DNA of 24,148 bases. Source: a virus. Lineage: Duplodnaviria > Heunggongvirae > Uroviricota > Caudoviricetes. Shown here piece by piece: positions 3,257 through 9,682 of the stretch (the stretch's first letter is position 1; every line of letters begins with the position of its first letter). The notes beneath the pieces are model-generated. The model saw only the letters and a list, made by a program, of their open reading frames with translations, was not told where the DNA came from and searched no databases. Location: positions 1-24,148 of the IMG/VR virus record IMGVR_UViG_2778261504_000003; one strand, written 5' to 3'. The translations under genes and the position numbers were made by a program.

Positions 3257-3532
3257 ATGAGTAATCAAATTCACGATAAGATCTCTAAAAAAATGTCGAA
3301 AACTGACATTGGCAAACACTTTGGCATTAGCTCCCAGGCCGTAGGCAAGTGGTTCATTAAAGGCAAGGTTCCTGCTGAACGCGTGTCGTCACTCTGTGCA
3401 TTACTGAATTGGGAAATTACTCCCCACGAACTTCGCCCTGACATTTATCCCAACCCAACAGATGGACTACCTTGTGAAAATAAGTGTATGTCGAATGAAT
3501 CACTGGCGGTGAACAATGATATTCACTCCTGA
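3257..3532 (+). CDS. Cro/DicC-like HTH regulator
   Basis: HTH near the N-terminus (KTDIGKHFGISSQAVGKWF), divergent from the repressor. Start is ambiguous: GTG 3230, ATG 3257 or ATG 3293. Confidence 0.7.
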   Translation: MSNQIHDKISKKMSKTDIGKHFGISSQAVGKWFIKGKVPAERVSSLCALLNWEITPHELRPDIYPNPTDGLPCENKCMSNESLAVNNDIHS

Positions 3533-4037
3533 GCAGGCTCGCGAGGCTCTGGATGCCTGGGTATGCCGACCAGGAATGACGCAGGAGCAGGCGACGATAT
3601 TAATCACGGAAGCATTCTGGGCTCTGAAAGAACGCCCGAACATCGATGTTCATCGCGTCACGTTTGATGATGGCGCGGTTGATCAACGGGCGCTGGGCGT
3701 TAACAGGGTGAAGATATTCGAACGCTGGAAAGCTATCGACACCAGGGATAAGCGTGAAAAATTCACGGCGCTGATTCCGGCAATTATGGAGGCTATCCGG
3801 ATCAGCGATTTCAGGTTGTATTGTGAAATTACTGACGGAAAAAGCATTACGTACATGATCGCCGGGTTAAACAAAGAATATGGCGATGTGGTGGAGTCCG
3901 GGCTGCTTTTTGCGGATCCAGCTGTTGTGGAACGTGAGACTGACGAGCTTATAGAAAAAGCCATTGCTTTCAAGCGTGCGTATCGTCAGCAATATCAACA
4001 AAAAGTCGGATGGAATTATGAGTCTTCTTTTTGCTGA
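3516..4037 (+). CDS. YdaT-like protein (CII-position regulator of Rac/Qin-type phages), 173 aa
   Basis: Immediately follows and overlaps the Cro-like gene. Contains REKFTALIPAIMEAIR, which resembles the YdaT family as I remember it. Family assignment tentative. Confidence 0.5.
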   Translation: MIFTPEQAREALDAWVCRPGMTQEQATILITEAFWALKERPNIDVHRVTFDDGAVDQRALGVNRVKIFERWKAIDTRDKREKFTALIPAIMEAIRISDFRLYCEITDGKSITYMIAGLNKEYGDVVESGLLFADPAVVERETDELIEKAIAFKRAYRQQYQQKVGWNYESSFC

Positions 4038-4983
4038 ACGCCCACTGGTTATTAACACGCAGCTGGCGATGAAAATTGGTCTGAACGAAGCCATCGTGTT
4101 GCAGCAGCTGCATTACTGGTTGAGAGATACCGGTTCCGGCATGGAATGTGATGGTGTTCGCTGGATTTATAACACAACAGAACAATGGCTGGAACAGTTC
4201 CCGTTCTGGTCAGAGTCAACGTTAAAACGCGCATTTGCAAGTCTGAAAGCGCTGGGGCTTTTGCGTTGCGAAAAGCTCAACAAATCAAAGCGTGACATGA
4301 CTAATTTTTACACGATTAATTACGAGAGCGAGCTTTTAGATGGTGGCAAAGTGAGCGAATCCATCAGGTCAAAATGCGCCGCTCCATCAGGTCAAAATGA
4401 CACGATGGAAGAGGCCAAAATGACACGCTCCATTGGTTCAAAACGACACAATGTCATCGGGTCAAAATGGCCTGATGATCTTACAGAGAATACAACAGAG
4501 ATTACTACAGAGAATAAAAACACTTCTCGTCCGGAAGCTTTGCAACCGGACATGCAGACGGCTGAACAGGATTTTTTGACCCGACATCCTGACGCGGTTG
4601 TGTTCAGTGCGAAAAAACGCCAGTGGGGCAGCCAGGAAGATTTAGCGTGTGCGCAGTGGATCTGGGGACGAATCGTGAGTCTTTACGAGCAGGCTGCCAG
4701 CGATGATGGCGAAATCATGCGACCGAAAGAACCCAATTGGACTGCATGGGCCAATGATGTGCGCACAATGCGGATGCTGGATGGCAGAACTCACAGACAA
4801 ATTTGCGAAATGTTTGGTCGGGTGCAGCGGGATCCCTTCTGGGTAAAAAACGTCATGAGCCCGTCAAAGCTTCGCGAAAAATGGGATGAGCTGGTTATTC
4901 GTCTGGGGCGTTCGCCTGTACAGCGTTGCGTGAATCACATTTCTGAACCGGACACCGAAATTCCGCCGGGGTTCAGGGGGTAA
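4015..4983 (+). CDS. Phage replication initiation protein (N-terminal replisome-organizer-like wHTH; C-terminal DnaT-like region)
   Basis: LVINTQLAMKIGLNEAIVLQQLHYWL...WIYNTTEQWLEQFPFWSESTLKRAFASLKALGLL is typical of phage replication initiator N-domains. Position after cro/cII analogues. Start at ATG 4015 (GGATGGAA upstream) preferred over 3964. Confidence 0.65.
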   Translation: MMSLLFAERPLVINTQLAMKIGLNEAIVLQQLHYWLRDTGSGMECDGVRWIYNTTEQWLEQFPFWSESTLKRAFASLKALGLLRCEKLNKSKRDMTNFYTINYESELLDGGKVSESIRSKCAAPSGQNDTMEEAKMTRSIGSKRHNVIGSKWPDDLTENTTEITTENKNTSRPEALQPDMQTAEQDFLTRHPDAVVFSAKKRQWGSQEDLACAQWIWGRIVSLYEQAASDDGEIMRPKEPNWTAWANDVRTMRMLDGRTHRQICEMFGRVQRDPFWVKNVMSPSKLREKWDELVIRLGRSPVQRCVNHISEPDTEIPPGFRG

Positions 4984-5025
4984 GTGTTGATTTGAGGTTA
5001 TGAAGTTATTTTCTCAGGAGAGTTT

Positions 5026-5427
5026 ATGGGGGCTATTTATACCGAAGAACAGCGGGAAAGATTACAGCGTCACATCGTTGACCTTGTACGTAAAAACGGG
5101 CGTATGACAATGCCACAACTGGCATCGACAACATATGCTTCACATGATTCCATTCGCCGGTACCTGAAGATGCTGGTGAGCCAGGGCGAAGTGTATGTTG
5201 TCAGCGGAAAAGGGGTGTTCCTTTCAGAGGGAGTTTACCGTGAATGGCTGGCAAGTTCGGCAAGAAAAGCAAGGGTTATCCGCAAACCAGCACAAAAACA
5301 GGGTAAAGCCGGAGCACAACCCTACGACCGGCACCAGAACATAATTTGCCGTGAGTGCCGTCAGAGTGAGGTTATGCAGCGTGTACTGGCGTTCTATCAG
5401 GGAGATTTTCAGGAGGTGATGGTGTGA
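5026..5427 (+). CDS. Hypothetical early protein with a probable winged-helix DNA-binding N-domain (133 aa)
   Basis: AGGAGA 7 nt upstream of ATG. TMPQLASTTYASHDSIRRYLKMLVSQGEV resembles a wHTH recognition helix. Basic, Cys-containing C-terminus. Confidence 0.6.
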   Translation: MGAIYTEEQRERLQRHIVDLVRKNGRMTMPQLASTTYASHDSIRRYLKMLVSQGEVYVVSGKGVFLSEGVYREWLASSARKARVIRKPAQKQGKAGAQPYDRHQNIICRECRQSEVMQRVLAFYQGDFQEVMV

Positions 5428-5723
5428 GGGTAAGGGTTTATATCGCTGGTCCGATGACCGGGTATAAAAATTTCAACCGTGAGGCGTTCCACAATGCGGA
5501 AGAGGAACTGAAACGGGAAGGGCATACAGTCTTAAACCCGGCAGTACTTCCAGACGGGCTGACACAGCCACACTACATGGATATTTGCATGGCAATGATT
5601 CGTTGTGTGGATGCGATTTACATGCTGAAAGGCTGGCAGTGGTCAACAGGCGCTAAGGCAGAACTGGCACTGGCGGAGAAGCTGGGGCATGCAGTTATTT
5701 TCCAGGAGGCAAACAGTGAGTAA
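5424..5723 (+). CDS. DUF4406-family protein (nucleoside 2-deoxyribosyltransferase-like fold), 99 aa
   Basis: N-terminal VYIAGPMTG motif and ...NPAV... WQWSTGAKAELALAEKLGHAV pattern characteristic of DUF4406. GTG start overlaps the upstream stop (GTGA); AGGAGG upstream. Confidence 0.7.
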   Translation: MRVRVYIAGPMTGYKNFNREAFHNAEEELKREGHTVLNPAVLPDGLTQPHYMDICMAMIRCVDAIYMLKGWQWSTGAKAELALAEKLGHAVIFQEANSE

Positions 5724-6396
5724 TCAATGGCGACCAGATATTTGCCCTATAACCGGACGTGCATTTTTCATGTGGATTGAGCATCCGAAATTGGGAAATG
5801 TACCGACGTACGGTGGCCCATTAGACAGTTACACCATTCCAACAAGGGACAGCGATGGTGAGTTTTCATGTGAGCGTTACGATCATGATTTCGGCGGTTG
5901 GGTAGAAAGCGAATGTCTTGGGTTATATCTGATTGATGATAAAGAGCAATGCAGAGTCTACGAACTGGAGGAACGCATTGCAGGGCTGGAGACTAATCTT
6001 GCTGCGCTTGCGGCGGAGAATGCGGGGCTGAATAAATTTATCGTACAGAGTTGCTACGTGTTTGATGGCGAGCAGGATGAACTATCTGATGCGTATATCT
6101 GTGCAATAGACGGAAGGATGCCGCAAACCCCGGCTACAGATGCTTTCCTGGCTGATGTACGTGCGGAAGCACGCAACGAGGGGATTAACTATACCGCCAG
6201 CCGTCTTGCTGCTGCGTTCAATCACGGATTTATCAATAAGTCTTTACGTGAAGTTTTCGACGTTACGCGCATGATTCTGTCAGCGAAAGAAGAGTTGGCT
6301 AATGAACCGCACCCGATTGATGGTCTGTCCGGTGAATATGCGGAGAAATCCCTTGAAGAATGGGCGGAACAGATTCGCAAAGGAGACAACCAGTGA
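5716..6396 (+). CDS. Hypothetical early protein with a central coiled-coil (possibly Ead/Ea22-like)
   Basis: GTG at 5716 with AGGAGG 6 nt upstream, overlapping the previous stop. Central heptad-like segment ELEERIAGLETNLAALAAENAGL. Family assignment uncertain. Confidence 0.55.
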   Translation: MSNQWRPDICPITGRAFFMWIEHPKLGNVPTYGGPLDSYTIPTRDSDGEFSCERYDHDFGGWVESECLGLYLIDDKEQCRVYELEERIAGLETNLAALAAENAGLNKFIVQSCYVFDGEQDELSDAYICAIDGRMPQTPATDAFLADVRAEARNEGINYTASRLAAAFNHGFINKSLREVFDVTRMILSAKEELANEPHPIDGLSGEYAEKSLEEWAEQIRKGDNQ

Positions 6397-6647
6397 GTGA
6401 GTCAAAATGCCAAATTAATGGCAACAAGATAGAACCATGTGCAGCACTGGCAAAATCCCTTGAGCATGATGCTGAATACACGACGCGAAAAGGTCTGCTG
6501 ATATACAAAATCTGGAATGAGAGTTTAACTCGCGGCCCTGATTTGGTGATGTTGCGTTCCGGTGAATTTTCTAAATCACCAGTGCGGGTTTCATTTTGTC
6601 CGTTCTGTGGTGAAAGTCTGAAAACGTGGGAGAACAGAAATGAATGA
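6393..6647 (+). CDS. Hypothetical small protein with Cys pairs (putative zinc ribbon)
   Basis: GTG start overlapping the upstream stop (GTGA), AAGGAGA upstream. CQINGNKIEPC and CPFCG pairs. Confidence 0.5.
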   Translation: MSESKCQINGNKIEPCAALAKSLEHDAEYTTRKGLLIYKIWNESLTRGPDLVMLRSGEFSKSPVRVSFCPFCGESLKTWENRNE

Positions 6648-6951
6648 AATTAAAGAAATACCAGTAGTACGTGATGAATATGGCTGCTGGACGCATCCTG
6701 AATATGAAAAATTCTGTGATGGTAGAGAACATATTTCAACGGAAGAGTTTAACGCATGGATGGAGGAAAATAATCTTCAATGGACCATCAGAACTATGGA
6801 TGAAGATGATTTTAATCTTGATGCAGATGGTCCTGATATTTCCACCTGGGAACCGGAACGACCAGAGGGCGATGGATGGTTTATTGGTTCAATACATGAC
6901 ACCGAAGATGGCCCGGTTTGTGTCTGGTTGCGAAATAAGGCTGAAGCGTAA
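6640..6951 (+). CDS. Hypothetical strongly acidic protein (103 aa)
   Basis: ATG overlaps the upstream stop. About 27 Asp/Glu against 8 Lys/Arg, with aromatic residues interspersed (WEPERPEGDGWFIGSIHDTEDGP). Confidence 0.6.
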   Translation: MNEIKEIPVVRDEYGCWTHPEYEKFCDGREHISTEEFNAWMEENNLQWTIRTMDEDDFNLDADGPDISTWEPERPEGDGWFIGSIHDTEDGPVCVWLRNKAEA

Positions 6952-7050
6952 AGGCGATAAATCCCCTGGCAACAAAACACTGAAAATTTAAATCAGAAGT
7001 GATTTTTATTAAATCCTTAACCGGAGGGATTCCTGCACCCTCAAAACATC

Positions 7051-7078
7051 AGGAGGCCGCCCGAAAGGGCGGTAATAA
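7051..7078 (+). promoter_or_regulatory. Shine-Dalgarno, GNRA-capped hairpin, start codon arrangement upstream of the 7079 ORF
   Basis: AGGAGG (7051-7056) followed directly by hairpin CCGCCC-GAAA-GGGCGG (7057-7072), then TAATAA and ATG 7079. Confidence 0.4.
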
Positions 7079-7297
7079 ATGACTGCATTATTCAGAAAAG
7101 AATATCCGCGAAAGAGTAGAACAACAGAATTTCTGTTTCTCATTCTGTTTATCGTGTTGATGATACCGATAAACCTGCTGTTTCTGGTTTGGATAATCGG
7201 AAAAATATTTGAGCCGATTGTTGAACTGTATATCGATATGGTATGGGAACCATTCAGGGCGCTACACAACAAAATTAATCCATATAAGGAAAACTGA
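7079..7297 (+). CDS. Hypothetical small membrane protein (72 aa)
   Basis: Hydrophobic core FLFLILFIVLMIPINLLFLVWIIG. Start context as in the preceding feature. Confidence 0.45.
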   Translation: MTALFRKEYPRKSRTTEFLFLILFIVLMIPINLLFLVWIIGKIFEPIVELYIDMVWEPFRALHNKINPYKEN

Positions 7298-7298
7298 A

Positions 7299-8231
7299 AT
7301 GACTGAATTAACCAAAGAACAATTAATCGAAGAAGCGAAATTAAAAATAGCGATTGCGAAATGCCACCCCAATTCAGAGATGGCGCGGGTAGAGGGCGAG
7401 TTATTCAAAATTGCACTGGCATCGCTGGTAGCTGAACCGCTGGTGCCCGTCATGTATAAAGGAATGAAACTGTTAACAAAAGAGGGGCTTGAACTTATTC
7501 GTGACGGTATAGCTGAGGCTACAGGACTGGAAGCAATGTGTATGGCCAAGGCTTTACTGTCTGCGCCGTCAGTTCCGGTTGTGCCGGATAATGTATCAGG
7601 GTCTCTTGCTTATGCTTACAAAGAGCTTACGCCTGAGATTATGCGCGGTCATATCGCTGTATTCGAGCGATATGGAATAGCCCCAAACGATAGCTCTACC
7701 ACAATTCAGGCACTGCGAATCGCGCTGGATGGTATAGAGCGGAGTGCCGCCATGCTTCAGAGTCAGGGGGAAGGCAACCCTCATGTAACCCCGACTCGCC
7801 TGCCTGGTGGTTTCACCATTGAGGATGCGAAGGCGTTACATGAAGACTTGGTACGCAGCCACATAAGCCAGGCTTTAAGTGGCGAGAAGATGAAAAAGAA
7901 AGATCGCGATGCTGATTTGCGCTGGATTCATGGCGTTATAGTTCAGGCAGCGTGGTTTGTAAAAGCATCACTGGAGCAGAATGCGCTATCGGGTACCCCT
8001 CCGGTAACTCCGGCTGGCTGGATAAGCTGTAGTGATGCAGTTCCTGCTGAATATTGCGATGTGATTCTTCTCGATGATCTCGGTAATGTATTCCCCGGTT
8101 CTTGGGATAAGGTTTTTTGCCCCACTTGTGGCGGGAATAAGATGGCTTTTGTGGACAAAGACGGCGTCGAAGTAGAGAGCTCAACTCACTGGATGCCGCT
8201 ACCGGAACCACCGCAGGAGGTGAACGGATGA
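7299..8231 (+). CDS. Phage protein with a C-terminal DUF551-like domain
   Basis: ATG 7299 with AAGGAAAA upstream. C-terminus ...KVFCPTCGGNKMAFVDKDGVEVESSTHWMPLPEPP resembles the DUF551 signature as I remember it. Confidence 0.6.
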   Translation: MTELTKEQLIEEAKLKIAIAKCHPNSEMARVEGELFKIALASLVAEPLVPVMYKGMKLLTKEGLELIRDGIAEATGLEAMCMAKALLSAPSVPVVPDNVSGSLAYAYKELTPEIMRGHIAVFERYGIAPNDSSTTIQALRIALDGIERSAAMLQSQGEGNPHVTPTRLPGGFTIEDAKALHEDLVRSHISQALSGEKMKKKDRDADLRWIHGVIVQAAWFVKASLEQNALSGTPPVTPAGWISCSDAVPAEYCDVILLDDLGNVFPGSWDKVFCPTCGGNKMAFVDKDGVEVESSTHWMPLPEPPQEVNG

Positions 8232-8623
8232 AAAATGAAGTCGACAATGTTATCACTCTGGTACAGCCAAAATCAGAGGAGGAAGGACTCCTCAACGTTG
8301 TGATAACCGACGAAAAAAGTGTCGAGCAAAAATGCTGTCAGCATATCCGTACAACAATTTCAGAAGTGAATCGTACGATTACCTGCAAACGGTGTGGATT
8401 GGCTTTAGATCCGTTCGAACTTGTTCTCGACCGTGCGAGAAACGGTGAAAACATAGTGTCTGAGATTAAATCACTCTATGCAAAGCGGGATGCTCTTCGT
8501 GAAGCTGTGGCAAAACTTGAACGTGAAGAGAAAAATGCCAAAGCCCGGTTACGAGCAGCCAGGACAGCAATACTGTATGCGGAAAATGACCTTAAAAATA
8601 TTGAGCAGGAGGTGAATCGATGA
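8228..8623 (+). CDS. Hypothetical protein, Cys-pair plus C-terminal coiled-coil (131 aa)
   Basis: AGGAGG upstream; ATG overlaps the previous stop. CCQH ... CKRCG pairs; C-terminal KRDALREAVAKLEREEKNAKARLRAA heptads. Confidence 0.55.
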   Translation: MKNEVDNVITLVQPKSEEEGLLNVVITDEKSVEQKCCQHIRTTISEVNRTITCKRCGLALDPFELVLDRARNGENIVSEIKSLYAKRDALREAVAKLEREEKNAKARLRAARTAILYAENDLKNIEQEVNR

Positions 8624-8708: not shown

Positions 8709-8739
8709 AAAAACCCCGGATTGATGGTCCGGGGTTTTG
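8709..8739. terminator. Bidirectional intrinsic terminator separating the rightward early genes from the convergent toxin-antitoxin operon
   Basis: A-run, CCCCGGA, loop TTGATGG, TCCGGGG, then TTTT. U-tract available on both strands. Confidence 0.65.
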
Positions 8740-8759: not shown

Positions 8760-9077
8760 TTAACAGATTGACTGAATTCCGTTTTTCTCAACCACAGAAA
8801 GCAAACGAAGGGCAGGGCCACCAGGGCGCTTTATTCCCCTTTCCCAGTCTGAAATGAGGTTTTTACTGACATTAAGATATCTGGCGAAAACAGGTTGAGA
8901 CAGATGCTCGCGCTCGCGAAGTGCCCGGATTCTTTCTGGCGACATTGTTGGCGCTGGTTGCAGACAGAGTTCATCAAACTCTCTCATAGTTTGTTTTGTA
9001 ACTGCGCCAATATCCTGAAGTGACTCCATCATTTCATGTACGGATGCAAGTGCATCACTGCGGTAATTTTTACTCAT
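8760..9077 (-). CDS. Type II antitoxin, XRE/HigA-like HTH DNA-binding protein (105 aa)
   Basis: C-terminal HTH SPERIRALREREHLSQPVFARYLNVSKNLISDWERGIKRP. Overlaps the 3' end of the upstream toxin gene by 8 nt. Confidence 0.75.
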   Translation of the reverse strand: MSKNYRSDALASVHEMMESLQDIGAVTKQTMREFDELCLQPAPTMSPERIRALREREHLSQPVFARYLNVSKNLISDWERGIKRPGGPALRLLSVVEKNGIQSIC

Positions 9078-9441
9078 TGGGTACCTCCGTAAACTGACCT
9101 TGCAGGATCAATTGCGCCAGTTGTTCATCAGTAAGATTGAGAACGTGATGCGCAGCTTTTCGAAATGCGTTTTCCTCGATGGCTGTAATATTTTCTCTCT
9201 CATTCTTTGCGTACGCATAGATGAAAAAAGCCTTTTCTGCGACGCGGTAAAAAATTATTGTCCTATAACCGCCTGATTTACCGCCACCTCTTCGGGCTAA
9301 TCGCTGCTTAATGACACCACTACCCAAATCTGCGGATATGAGTCCCTTATCAGCTAGTTCCACGACTTCTCGCAGAGCTTTATCGGAAATCCGATTTTTT
9401 CGTGCGAAGCGTTCAAACCAGGCATTTTTGAAAATGCGCAT
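9070..9441 (-). CDS. Type II toxin, RelE/ParE superfamily (HigB-like gene order, toxin first)
   Basis: Internal Met of track ORF 9070..9585 gives MRIFKNAWFERFARKNRISDKALREVVELADKGLISADLGSGVIKQRLARRGGGKSGGYRTIIFYRVAEKAFFIYAYAKNERENI..., typical of RelE/ParE-fold killer proteins paired with an HTH antidote. Alternative start 4 codons upstream. Confidence 0.75.
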   Translation of the reverse strand: MRIFKNAWFERFARKNRISDKALREVVELADKGLISADLGSGVIKQRLARRGGGKSGGYRTIIFYRVAEKAFFIYAYAKNERENITAIEENAFRKAAHHVLNLTDEQLAQLILQGQFTEVPNE

Positions 9442-9682
9442 GTTTGGTTCCATACCGTTGTGTAATACATAGTGTGACACAATTAAATAGGGCAGGCAAT
9501 ATCCATACAGAGGACTTGCTAAGGAATGGCGGCTCAAAAAACACTCTATTTTTAGAGTATACAAATGACAGAAAGAAAAAGTCATTGTTTTTTCTCATGA
9601 AATACGCATTTTTTGGGAGTGAAATCGTTATTTGTAGTGGATATATTCCAGCCATGTTTTATCCAATACCAGAGGTTTTACA

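Follow-up and report, generated by a model that had tools for sequence, protein, structure and literature searches.

A conserved Shine-Dalgarno hairpin module in Escherichia coli prophages, a candidate split ribosome-binding site resembling that of T4 gene 38

A Shine-Dalgarno (SD) sequence directly abutting a very stable predicted GC hairpin, with a start codon at a nearly fixed position behind the stem, is widely distributed among prophages of Escherichia coli. We found it ahead of a DUF4014 gene in the window, by which we mean the whole stretch of 24,148 nucleotides analyzed here. From this anatomy, and by analogy with T4 gene 38, we consider it probable, at about 0.58, that the SD-hairpin is a constitutive, portable split ribosome-binding site (RBS), and we infer that ribosomes recognize the SD upstream of the hairpin while the latter remains folded. 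Comparison of the sequences indicates that the functional unit is wider than DUF4014 and is a conserved portable SD-hairpin module for many accessory genes.

The SD, the hairpin and the DUF4014 gene

The coordinates of the features are collected in Table 1. An earlier note on this DNA had described an AGGAGG, a 22-nt gap, a 6-bp GC stem with a GAAA loop, and an effective spacing of about 6 nt, and these coordinates were found to be exact in the sequence. The distance from the last G of AGGAGG to the A of the ATG is 22 nt, which becomes 6 nt when the 16-nt hairpin is looped out; the same site with the hairpin (7057 to 7072) removed reads AGGAGGTAATAAATG. The nucleotides separating the stem from the ATG contain no alternative SD, the only nearby G-rich run being the GGGCGG 3' arm, which is locked in the stem.

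Table 1. Features of the SD-hairpin site and its surroundings (positions in the window)
Feature	Coordinates	Strand	Remarks
Upstream gene	6640–6951	+	103 aa, phrog_1372, function unknown
Conserved linker ATTAAATCCTTAACC	7008–7022	+	5' part of cassette A
Orphan SD-like GGAGGG	7023–7028	+	no start codon behind it
Weak hairpin 1	7024–7042	+	GAGGG 7024–7028 with CCCTC 7038–7042, 9-nt loop; sequesters the orphan SD
Shine-Dalgarno AGGAGG	7051–7056	+	directly 5' of the stem
Hairpin	7056–7073	+	CCGCCC 7057–7062 / GGGCGG 7067–7072, GAAA loop 7063–7066, outer G7056·U7073 pair
Spacer TAATAA	7073–7078	+	A/U-only; two in-frame stops; stem to start 6 nt
Start ATG of the DUF4014 gene	7079–7081	+
DUF4014 gene	7079–7297	+	72 aa, one hydrophobic segment
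DUF551-domain gene (MTELTK...)	7299–8231	+	homologue elsewhere directly behind SD-hairpin

ViennaRNA added the outer G7056·U7073 pair to the 6-bp all-GC stem, giving 7 pairs. The predicted fold of the 31-nt stretch had an energy of −15.5 kcal/mol (z = −3.8), and none of 200 shuffles was equally stable. Only one all-GC hairpin with a 6-bp stem and a 4-nt loop occurs in the 24-kb window, where 200 dinucleotide shuffles gave an expectation of 0.11. Temperature-dependent control, which the earlier note had also raised, is unlikely, because the stem includes neither the SD nor the AUG, and the hairpin is predicted to remain folded up to 90 °C (the probability of its central pair being at least 0.96 throughout). 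An RNA thermometer was rejected because neither the SD nor the AUG is sequestered in a structure melting at approximately 30–42 °C. An Rfam scan of positions 6000 to 8000 (E up to 10) returned only chance-level matches with E of at least 3, none of them at gathering score, and the hairpin sequence was absent from the open literature searched.

The ORF behind the hairpin is a full-length DUF4014 (PF13198, 84.9 bits vs. a cutoff of 23.2) and matches phrog_1832 with an E value of 2.5e-39. Its dN/dS was 0.20–0.45 against four homologues; at the sequence level, the gene is judged to be real and under purifying selection. To call its product a small membrane protein is reasonable, since a hydrophobic segment of about 25 residues follows the basic N-terminus of the predicted protein. 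The two in-frame stops of the spacer exclude any start earlier than 7079, and the DUF4014 homologues begin at the same residue. A literature search on DUF4014 and DUF7167 found nothing relevant.

The DUF4014 gene lies in an early prophage operon (+ strand genes 3516 to 8623) that includes cII-like, O-like replication initiator, Ren-like and small accessory genes, most of its operon neighbors having an ordinary SD 5–8 nt from the start. The upstream gene ends 127 nt before the DUF4014 start, and the resulting gap (6952 to 7078) is the one sizeable intergenic space in the tightly packed run of + strand genes between 5026 and 8623, where the other genes overlap or abut. No sigma-70-like site was found in this gap by promoter scan. 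A leader peptide was rejected, because no ORF started by ATG, GTG or TTG is in frame and ends at the TAA at 7073; the only small ORF in the gap (6999 to 7082, 27 aa, GTG start) is read in a different frame, and its first nucleotides (those before about 7008) vary between contexts in the alignment. The operon ends at a perfect bidirectional terminator (8710–8738; AAAACCCCGG...CCGGGGTTTT), beyond which a convergent pair, a RelE-family toxin (PF06296) and an HTH_3 antitoxin-like gene, occupies positions 8760 to 9585 of the − strand. The hairpin and the DUF551-type gene look as if they had been separated by an insertion of 220 nt, the DUF4014 ORF (region 7079 to 7301); in other phages the homologue of that gene starts 9 nt after the hairpin (…GGGCGGTAATGAAAAATGACTGAATTAACC).

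Distribution, start spacing and conservation of the cassette

A 161-nt probe recovered a conserved element of approximately 72 nt, here called cassette A, from many E. coli phages in which the flanking genes differed on both sides. Its consensus is TTAATCCTTAACCGGAGGGATTyCTGCACCCTCArAACATCAGGAGG-CCGCCCGAAAGGGCGG-TAAT. Of 5426 complete E. coli genomes, 2313 (43%) contained the SD-hairpin cassette, at 3764 places and in up to 6 copies per genome, strain PK8241 having a 100% match; about 150 of the 3764 copies were sampled for analysis. Among 185,579 species representatives (GTDB), cassette A occurred in E. coli and Shigella flexneri only. The Rac prophage of K-12, which is deleted after ydaW, is without the cassette.

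In BLAST comparisons with phage genomes, the homology breakpoints fell exactly at the SD-hairpin element. The homology of mEp460 and Rac-SA53 covered the upstream gene and the gap, up to 7072–7090, and that of Stx phages with the window began only at 7080. The gene behind this SD-hairpin in mEp460 is a different one, of 155 aa, and in Stx phage P27 the DUF4014 homologue has a GTG start and an ordinary AAAGGAGAG with no hairpin. A hairpin-only probe revealed a second upstream context, in which the unit lies 4 nt past the stop of a 70-aa gene (...GATTAA-TGTC-(A/G)GGAGG-hairpin); both contexts occur in one operon, approximately 1 kb apart, in some prophages. Common to the two is only TC-(A/G)GGAG(G/A)-CCGCCC-GAAA-GGGCGG-T(A), so the unit begins slightly upstream of the SD and ends shortly ahead of the start codon. 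A purine-rich SD-like hexamer abutted the stem in all 137 copies that the hairpin-only probe recovered in these two unrelated upstream contexts. Hairpin-less versions of either context gave 0 matches in IMG/VR.

In relatives, the linker, a GGAGG, 7 nt and an ATG form the ordinary RBS of the 70-aa gene (MSNTQK...), and the 3' flank of that gene is the SD-hairpin. From this arrangement, the orphan GGAGGG is probably the RBS left by the deleted 70-aa gene, and cassette A looks like that RBS fused to the SD-hairpin after the gene was lost. Such a fusion would explain the presence of the orphan GGAGGG, which pairs with CCCTC in hairpin 1. The loop bases UCCUG (7031–7035) of hairpin 1 are complementary to CAGGA (7050–7054) of the functional SD, and their pairing is a possible alternative conformation to hairpin 1. 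In folds made with 130–400 nt of context, the SD bases CAGGA were mostly paired, for example with this UCCUG, and SD accessibility is therefore not guaranteed. Other upstream bases also paired with 7050–7054 in the longer folds; the helices, of 5 bp, are weak, and the prediction lacks robustness. On these models, upstream pairing may modulate SD accessibility in cassette A. In some copies of cassette A (ON470614.1 at approximately 715–735, and several IMG/VR contigs), a G-homopolymer that varies in length (CCGGAGGGGGGGGCTGCACC vs. GGGGGGG) takes the place of the hairpin 1 loop, and these copies also have a G·G mismatch in the main stem (CGGCCC/GGGCGG).

PP818812.1, deposited as 'Actinobacillus phage vB_Apl-pPE4' with Actinobacillus pleuropneumoniae as host, has a cassette (701–775) approximately 95% identical to those of E. 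coli prophages, together with DUF7167 and DUF4014 genes; its host assignment looks doubtful. The SD-hairpin unit is present in the P1-like plasmid prophage MH160767.1 (Punavirus; L014, 700–760), it occurs with a degenerate GGGATG as its SD in Ro157c2YLVW, and the P1-like phage D6 (L277) has a DUF4014 gene. Because P1-like prophages carry the unit or the DUF4014 gene, the module crosses phage types. Variants of the form TAATCCTTAACCGGATAATAG...GGGCCGCGAAAGCGGCCCTTTTTTTT, considered as a true terminator at the equivalent position, were discarded as a chance 15-mer match in an unrelated phage context: the 15-mer TAATCCTTAACCGGA (L113, 7637; L132, reverse complement, 6651) lies at the end of an unrelated gene of approximately 270–290 aa and is followed by the strong terminator GGGCCGCGAAAGCGGCCCTTTTTTTT.

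The distance from the stem to the first long ORF was determined for 115 hairpin-bearing copies retrieved with a probe that did not include the hairpin. The start lay 6 nt after the stem for DUF4014 (9 copies), 7 nt for DUF7167 (67 copies) and a 66-aa ORF (1 copy), and 9 nt for the DUF551-type MTELTK gene (16 copies, with 3 more called at +2 in another frame by the simple rule) and for a 158-aa and a 133-aa ORF (1 copy each); a family with its own GGAG after the stem started at 11 nt (4 copies). Approximately 10 of the 115 copies received no call, as the rule found no ORF of 30 aa or more up to 45 nt from the stem. Some keep an intact ATG right behind the stem, and there a truncated locus or an interrupted ORF may be the cause. 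The unit stood ahead of at least 6 unrelated gene families, nearly all intact copies having the start 6–9 nt past the stem; in a few copies the stem is not directly followed by a start codon, or a separate SD lies after it (TGGAGATAATAATG). The DUF551-type gene of seven contigs starts with GTG rather than ATG at the same position.

The converse comparison was made with the DUF4014 genes. Among the 80 best DUF4014 loci in IMG/VR, 61 had the SD-hairpin, and the remaining 19 had a conventional GGAG with a spacer of approximately 6 nt. Hairpin-less DUF4014 genes (those 19 loci and the genes of P27, D6, MG40, epsilon15 and HK225) always had a conventional strong SD 5–7 nt upstream, so the effective spacing is equal in both architectures when the hairpin is discounted. 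No different hairpin was found at the same place in the distant DUF4014 homologues of D6, MG40, epsilon15 and HK225, where the genes are tightly packed and have ordinary SDs. The earlier note had treated the hairpin as a feature of the DUF4014 gene; that view has to be given up, the hairpin belonging to a portable cassette of many genes and DUF4014 homologues elsewhere having ordinary SDs.

Conservation of the stem was examined in 42 distinct haplotypes from a set unbiased with respect to the hairpin; these haplotypes are not independent. The GGAG core was invariant in all 42 and abutted the stem in every copy seen, and 94.9% of the stem cells were paired. Most changes were C to U in the 5' arm (19–20 haplotype cells, vs. 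3 G to A in the 3' arm), which convert pairs to G·U and are thus valid in the + strand RNA only. The total numbers of haplotype changes in the two arms were likewise unequal (28 vs. 7), the 3' arm and the GAAA loop being nearly invariant. There was one compensatory change (CCACCC/GGGTGG), and the outer pair changed from G·U to A-U when the SD changed from AGGAGG to AGGAGA. The loops GGCA, AAAA and TAAA and wobbles in the 5' arm were tolerated, and stem variants with an A·C or G·G mismatch persist in several contigs.

In a formal covariation test of the 42 haplotypes, no measure rose above that of shuffles, because the copies, approximately 92% identical, are too similar; divergent copies for such a test are lacking because only E. 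coli and Shigella flexneri carry cassette A. The conservation of the cassette may reflect recent spread rather than constraint, and the excess of C to U changes could come in part from transcription-associated deamination of the coding strand. As a sign of a selected structure, the substitution pattern of the stem is suggestive only.

Proposed mechanism and alternative explanations

In the mechanism that we propose, the 16–18-nt GC hairpin would fold constitutively on the + strand mRNA of the early prophage operon and would be looped out of the mRNA path of the 30S subunit. The AGGAGG 5' of the stem would pair with the tail of the 16S rRNA, and the P site would be reached by the AUG, which lies 6 nt beyond the stem, making the effective spacing approximately 6 nt instead of 22. 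Recombination would have placed the unit (SD, hairpin and U) before many accessory genes in lambdoid, Rac-like, Stx and some P1-like prophages of E. coli. We speculate that the hairpin makes the initiation region context-independent ('insulated'), gives some protection from nucleases, or both. A more elaborate version, in which a mobile 'plug-in' initiation cassette has its GAAA loop and 3' arm bound by a phage or host RNA-binding factor, creating a post-transcriptional regulon of up to 6 copies per genome, seems to us rather unlikely. Such a regulon would be comparable to the T4 RegA targets but would be set by the structured spacer.

The hairpin might instead serve as an intercistronic element for mRNA stability or processing, its position in the RBS being secondary. 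This reading is compatible with a split SD, and the two may coexist; by itself we regard it as doubtful but worth keeping in mind. Once the A/U-rich stretch downstream of it had been cleaved, the hairpin would stop 3'-to-5' exonucleases from degrading the upstream message, or, as a 5' stem-loop, it would stabilize the downstream message. The GNRA-capped all-GC hairpin is predicted to be very stable, an A/U-only single-stranded stretch follows it, it is present whatever gene lies up- or downstream (and can be present twice in one operon), and the adjacent start codon is missing in a few copies. A stabilizer, however, leaves unexplained why a strong SD always abuts its 5' side and why the starts of unrelated genes lie 6–9 nt from its 3' side, and a cut in the A/U spacer would break up the initiation region of the downstream gene. 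The position of the element exactly at mosaic breakpoints (where BLAST homology to one phage or another stops at 7072 or sets in at 7080) would also suit a passive recombination linker or scar, a young sequence spread by homologous recombination at module boundaries with a hairpin that has no function at the RNA level. Its restriction to E. coli and Shigella, its high identity with no significant covariation, and the likeness of cassette A to a deletion product of the 70-aa gene point in the same direction. A scar would nevertheless leave the downstream genes without a usable SD, although the same genes elsewhere and most neighbors use strong SDs; it also fits poorly with substitutions biased toward pair-preserving G·U, with unit edges that coincide with those of the initiation region, and with persistence in 43% of complete E. 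coli genomes. We consider this explanation quite unlikely.

Two further roles would make the hairpin a binding site or a stop signal. As an operator for a phage or host RNA-binding protein, of the boxB/N or the RegA/coat-protein kind, it would co-regulate translation or antitermination of the genes that carry it. The repetition of an identical hairpin before different genes of one prophage and the near invariance of the 3' arm and GAAA loop speak for an operator, as does the upper stem GCCC-GAAA-GGGC, which we take to resemble the lambda boxB stem; but the loop has 4 nt and is not the boxB pentaloop, the position is mid-operon, no boxA-like match exists on the + strand near 6950–7060, loop variants and 5'-arm wobbles are tolerated, and no candidate binding protein is consistently linked. 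An operator is thus very unlikely, and a lambda-type nut site was rejected on the missing boxA, the tetraloop, the mid-operon position and the multiple copies. The GC-rich perfect inverted repeat could also suggest an intrinsic terminator or attenuator, or a DNA palindrome recognized by a homing endonuclease or a repressor, and HNH endonuclease genes do lie beside DUF4014 in some phages. There is, however, no U-tract on either strand (UAAUAAAUG on the +, CCUCCUGAUG on the −); a terminator scan made no call for the + strand hairpin and one weak call on the − strand (7049–7064) that comprises one hairpin arm and the SD; and the real terminator of the operon is at 8710–8738. An intrinsic (Rho-independent) terminator was rejected on the tail and the absent + strand call, and the asymmetry of changes between the arms would be unexpected for a DNA palindrome. 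We regard this last group of roles as highly improbable.

If the SD-hairpin is indeed a split RBS, initiation from an SD bridged by a hairpin would reach beyond the two documented T4 genes (38 and 25) and extend to a module that more than 40% of the complete E. coli genomes sequenced contain, Stx phages being among its carriers. An RBS could then be transferred as a unit and work with genes unrelated to one another, which bears on how translation of newly joined genes is maintained in mosaic phages and on the design of context-insulated synthetic ribosome-binding sites. It would bear on start-site annotation as well, because gene callers penalize a 22-nt spacing. If the stability explanation is right, the element is simply a common intercistronic stabilizer hairpin.

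Comparison with known systems

Conserved boundary ('linker') sequences at the module junctions of mosaic lambdoid phages are a described concept. The SD-hairpin resembles them in being a short conserved intergenic sequence exactly at the homology breakpoints between gene modules, and differs from them in that it has every part of an initiation region, together with a strong RNA hairpin. The E. coli thrS message offers a split ribosome-binding site around a folded hairpin, the ribosome accommodating the hairpin between two single-stranded parts of the RBS (PMC3936740). The thrS hairpin, however, is a ThrRS-bound regulatory operator upstream of a normally spaced SD, and does not lie between SD and AUG as the hairpin in the window does.

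The closest likenesses are in T4, where RNA structure shortens the spacing between SD and AUG from 22 to 5 nt in gene 38 and from 27 to 11 nt in gene 25, and where mutations that destabilize the structure reduce initiation (review, PMC3014915). For gene 25 the structure is supported by reporter assays, DMS probing and T-even phylogeny (PMC3014915). The gene 25 site, an 'accommodated' RBS at the gene 26-25 junction, is like the window site in that an intervening RNA structure reduces the spacing. It differs in that its structure lies inside the overlapping upstream coding sequence at one gene junction, whereas the unit in the window is intergenic and portable. In a generic scan of 1.88 Mb for a GGAG, a hairpin, 4–10 nt and a start, T4 gene 38 was included as the positive control and was recovered; all other matches were the SD-hairpin cassette, except for three singletons.

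The analogy with T4 gene 38 drawn in the earlier note held up well on inspection. The gene 38 region reads AAGGAG-AGGGGC-UUCG-GCCCUU-CUAAAU-AUG, with a 22-nt spacing and 6 nt between stem and AUG, and the two sites share an SD directly 5' of a tetraloop hairpin, a 22-nt linear and a 5–6-nt effective spacing, and an A/U-rich spacer. The predicted energies of 46-nt stretches are also similar (−16.7 kcal/mol for gene 38 vs. −16.6 for the window). The stems and loops themselves (AGGGGC-UUCG-GCCCUU vs. CCGCCC-GAAA-GGGCGG) have no sequence homology, and the phages belong to different lineages; common descent with the T4 elements was rejected on these differences. The T4 element serves one late gene of a virulent phage, whereas that of the window is a multi-copy cassette associated with many unrelated accessory genes in temperate E. 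coli prophages. As far as the sequences indicate, the resemblance to T4 gene 38 is one of mechanism and architecture only.
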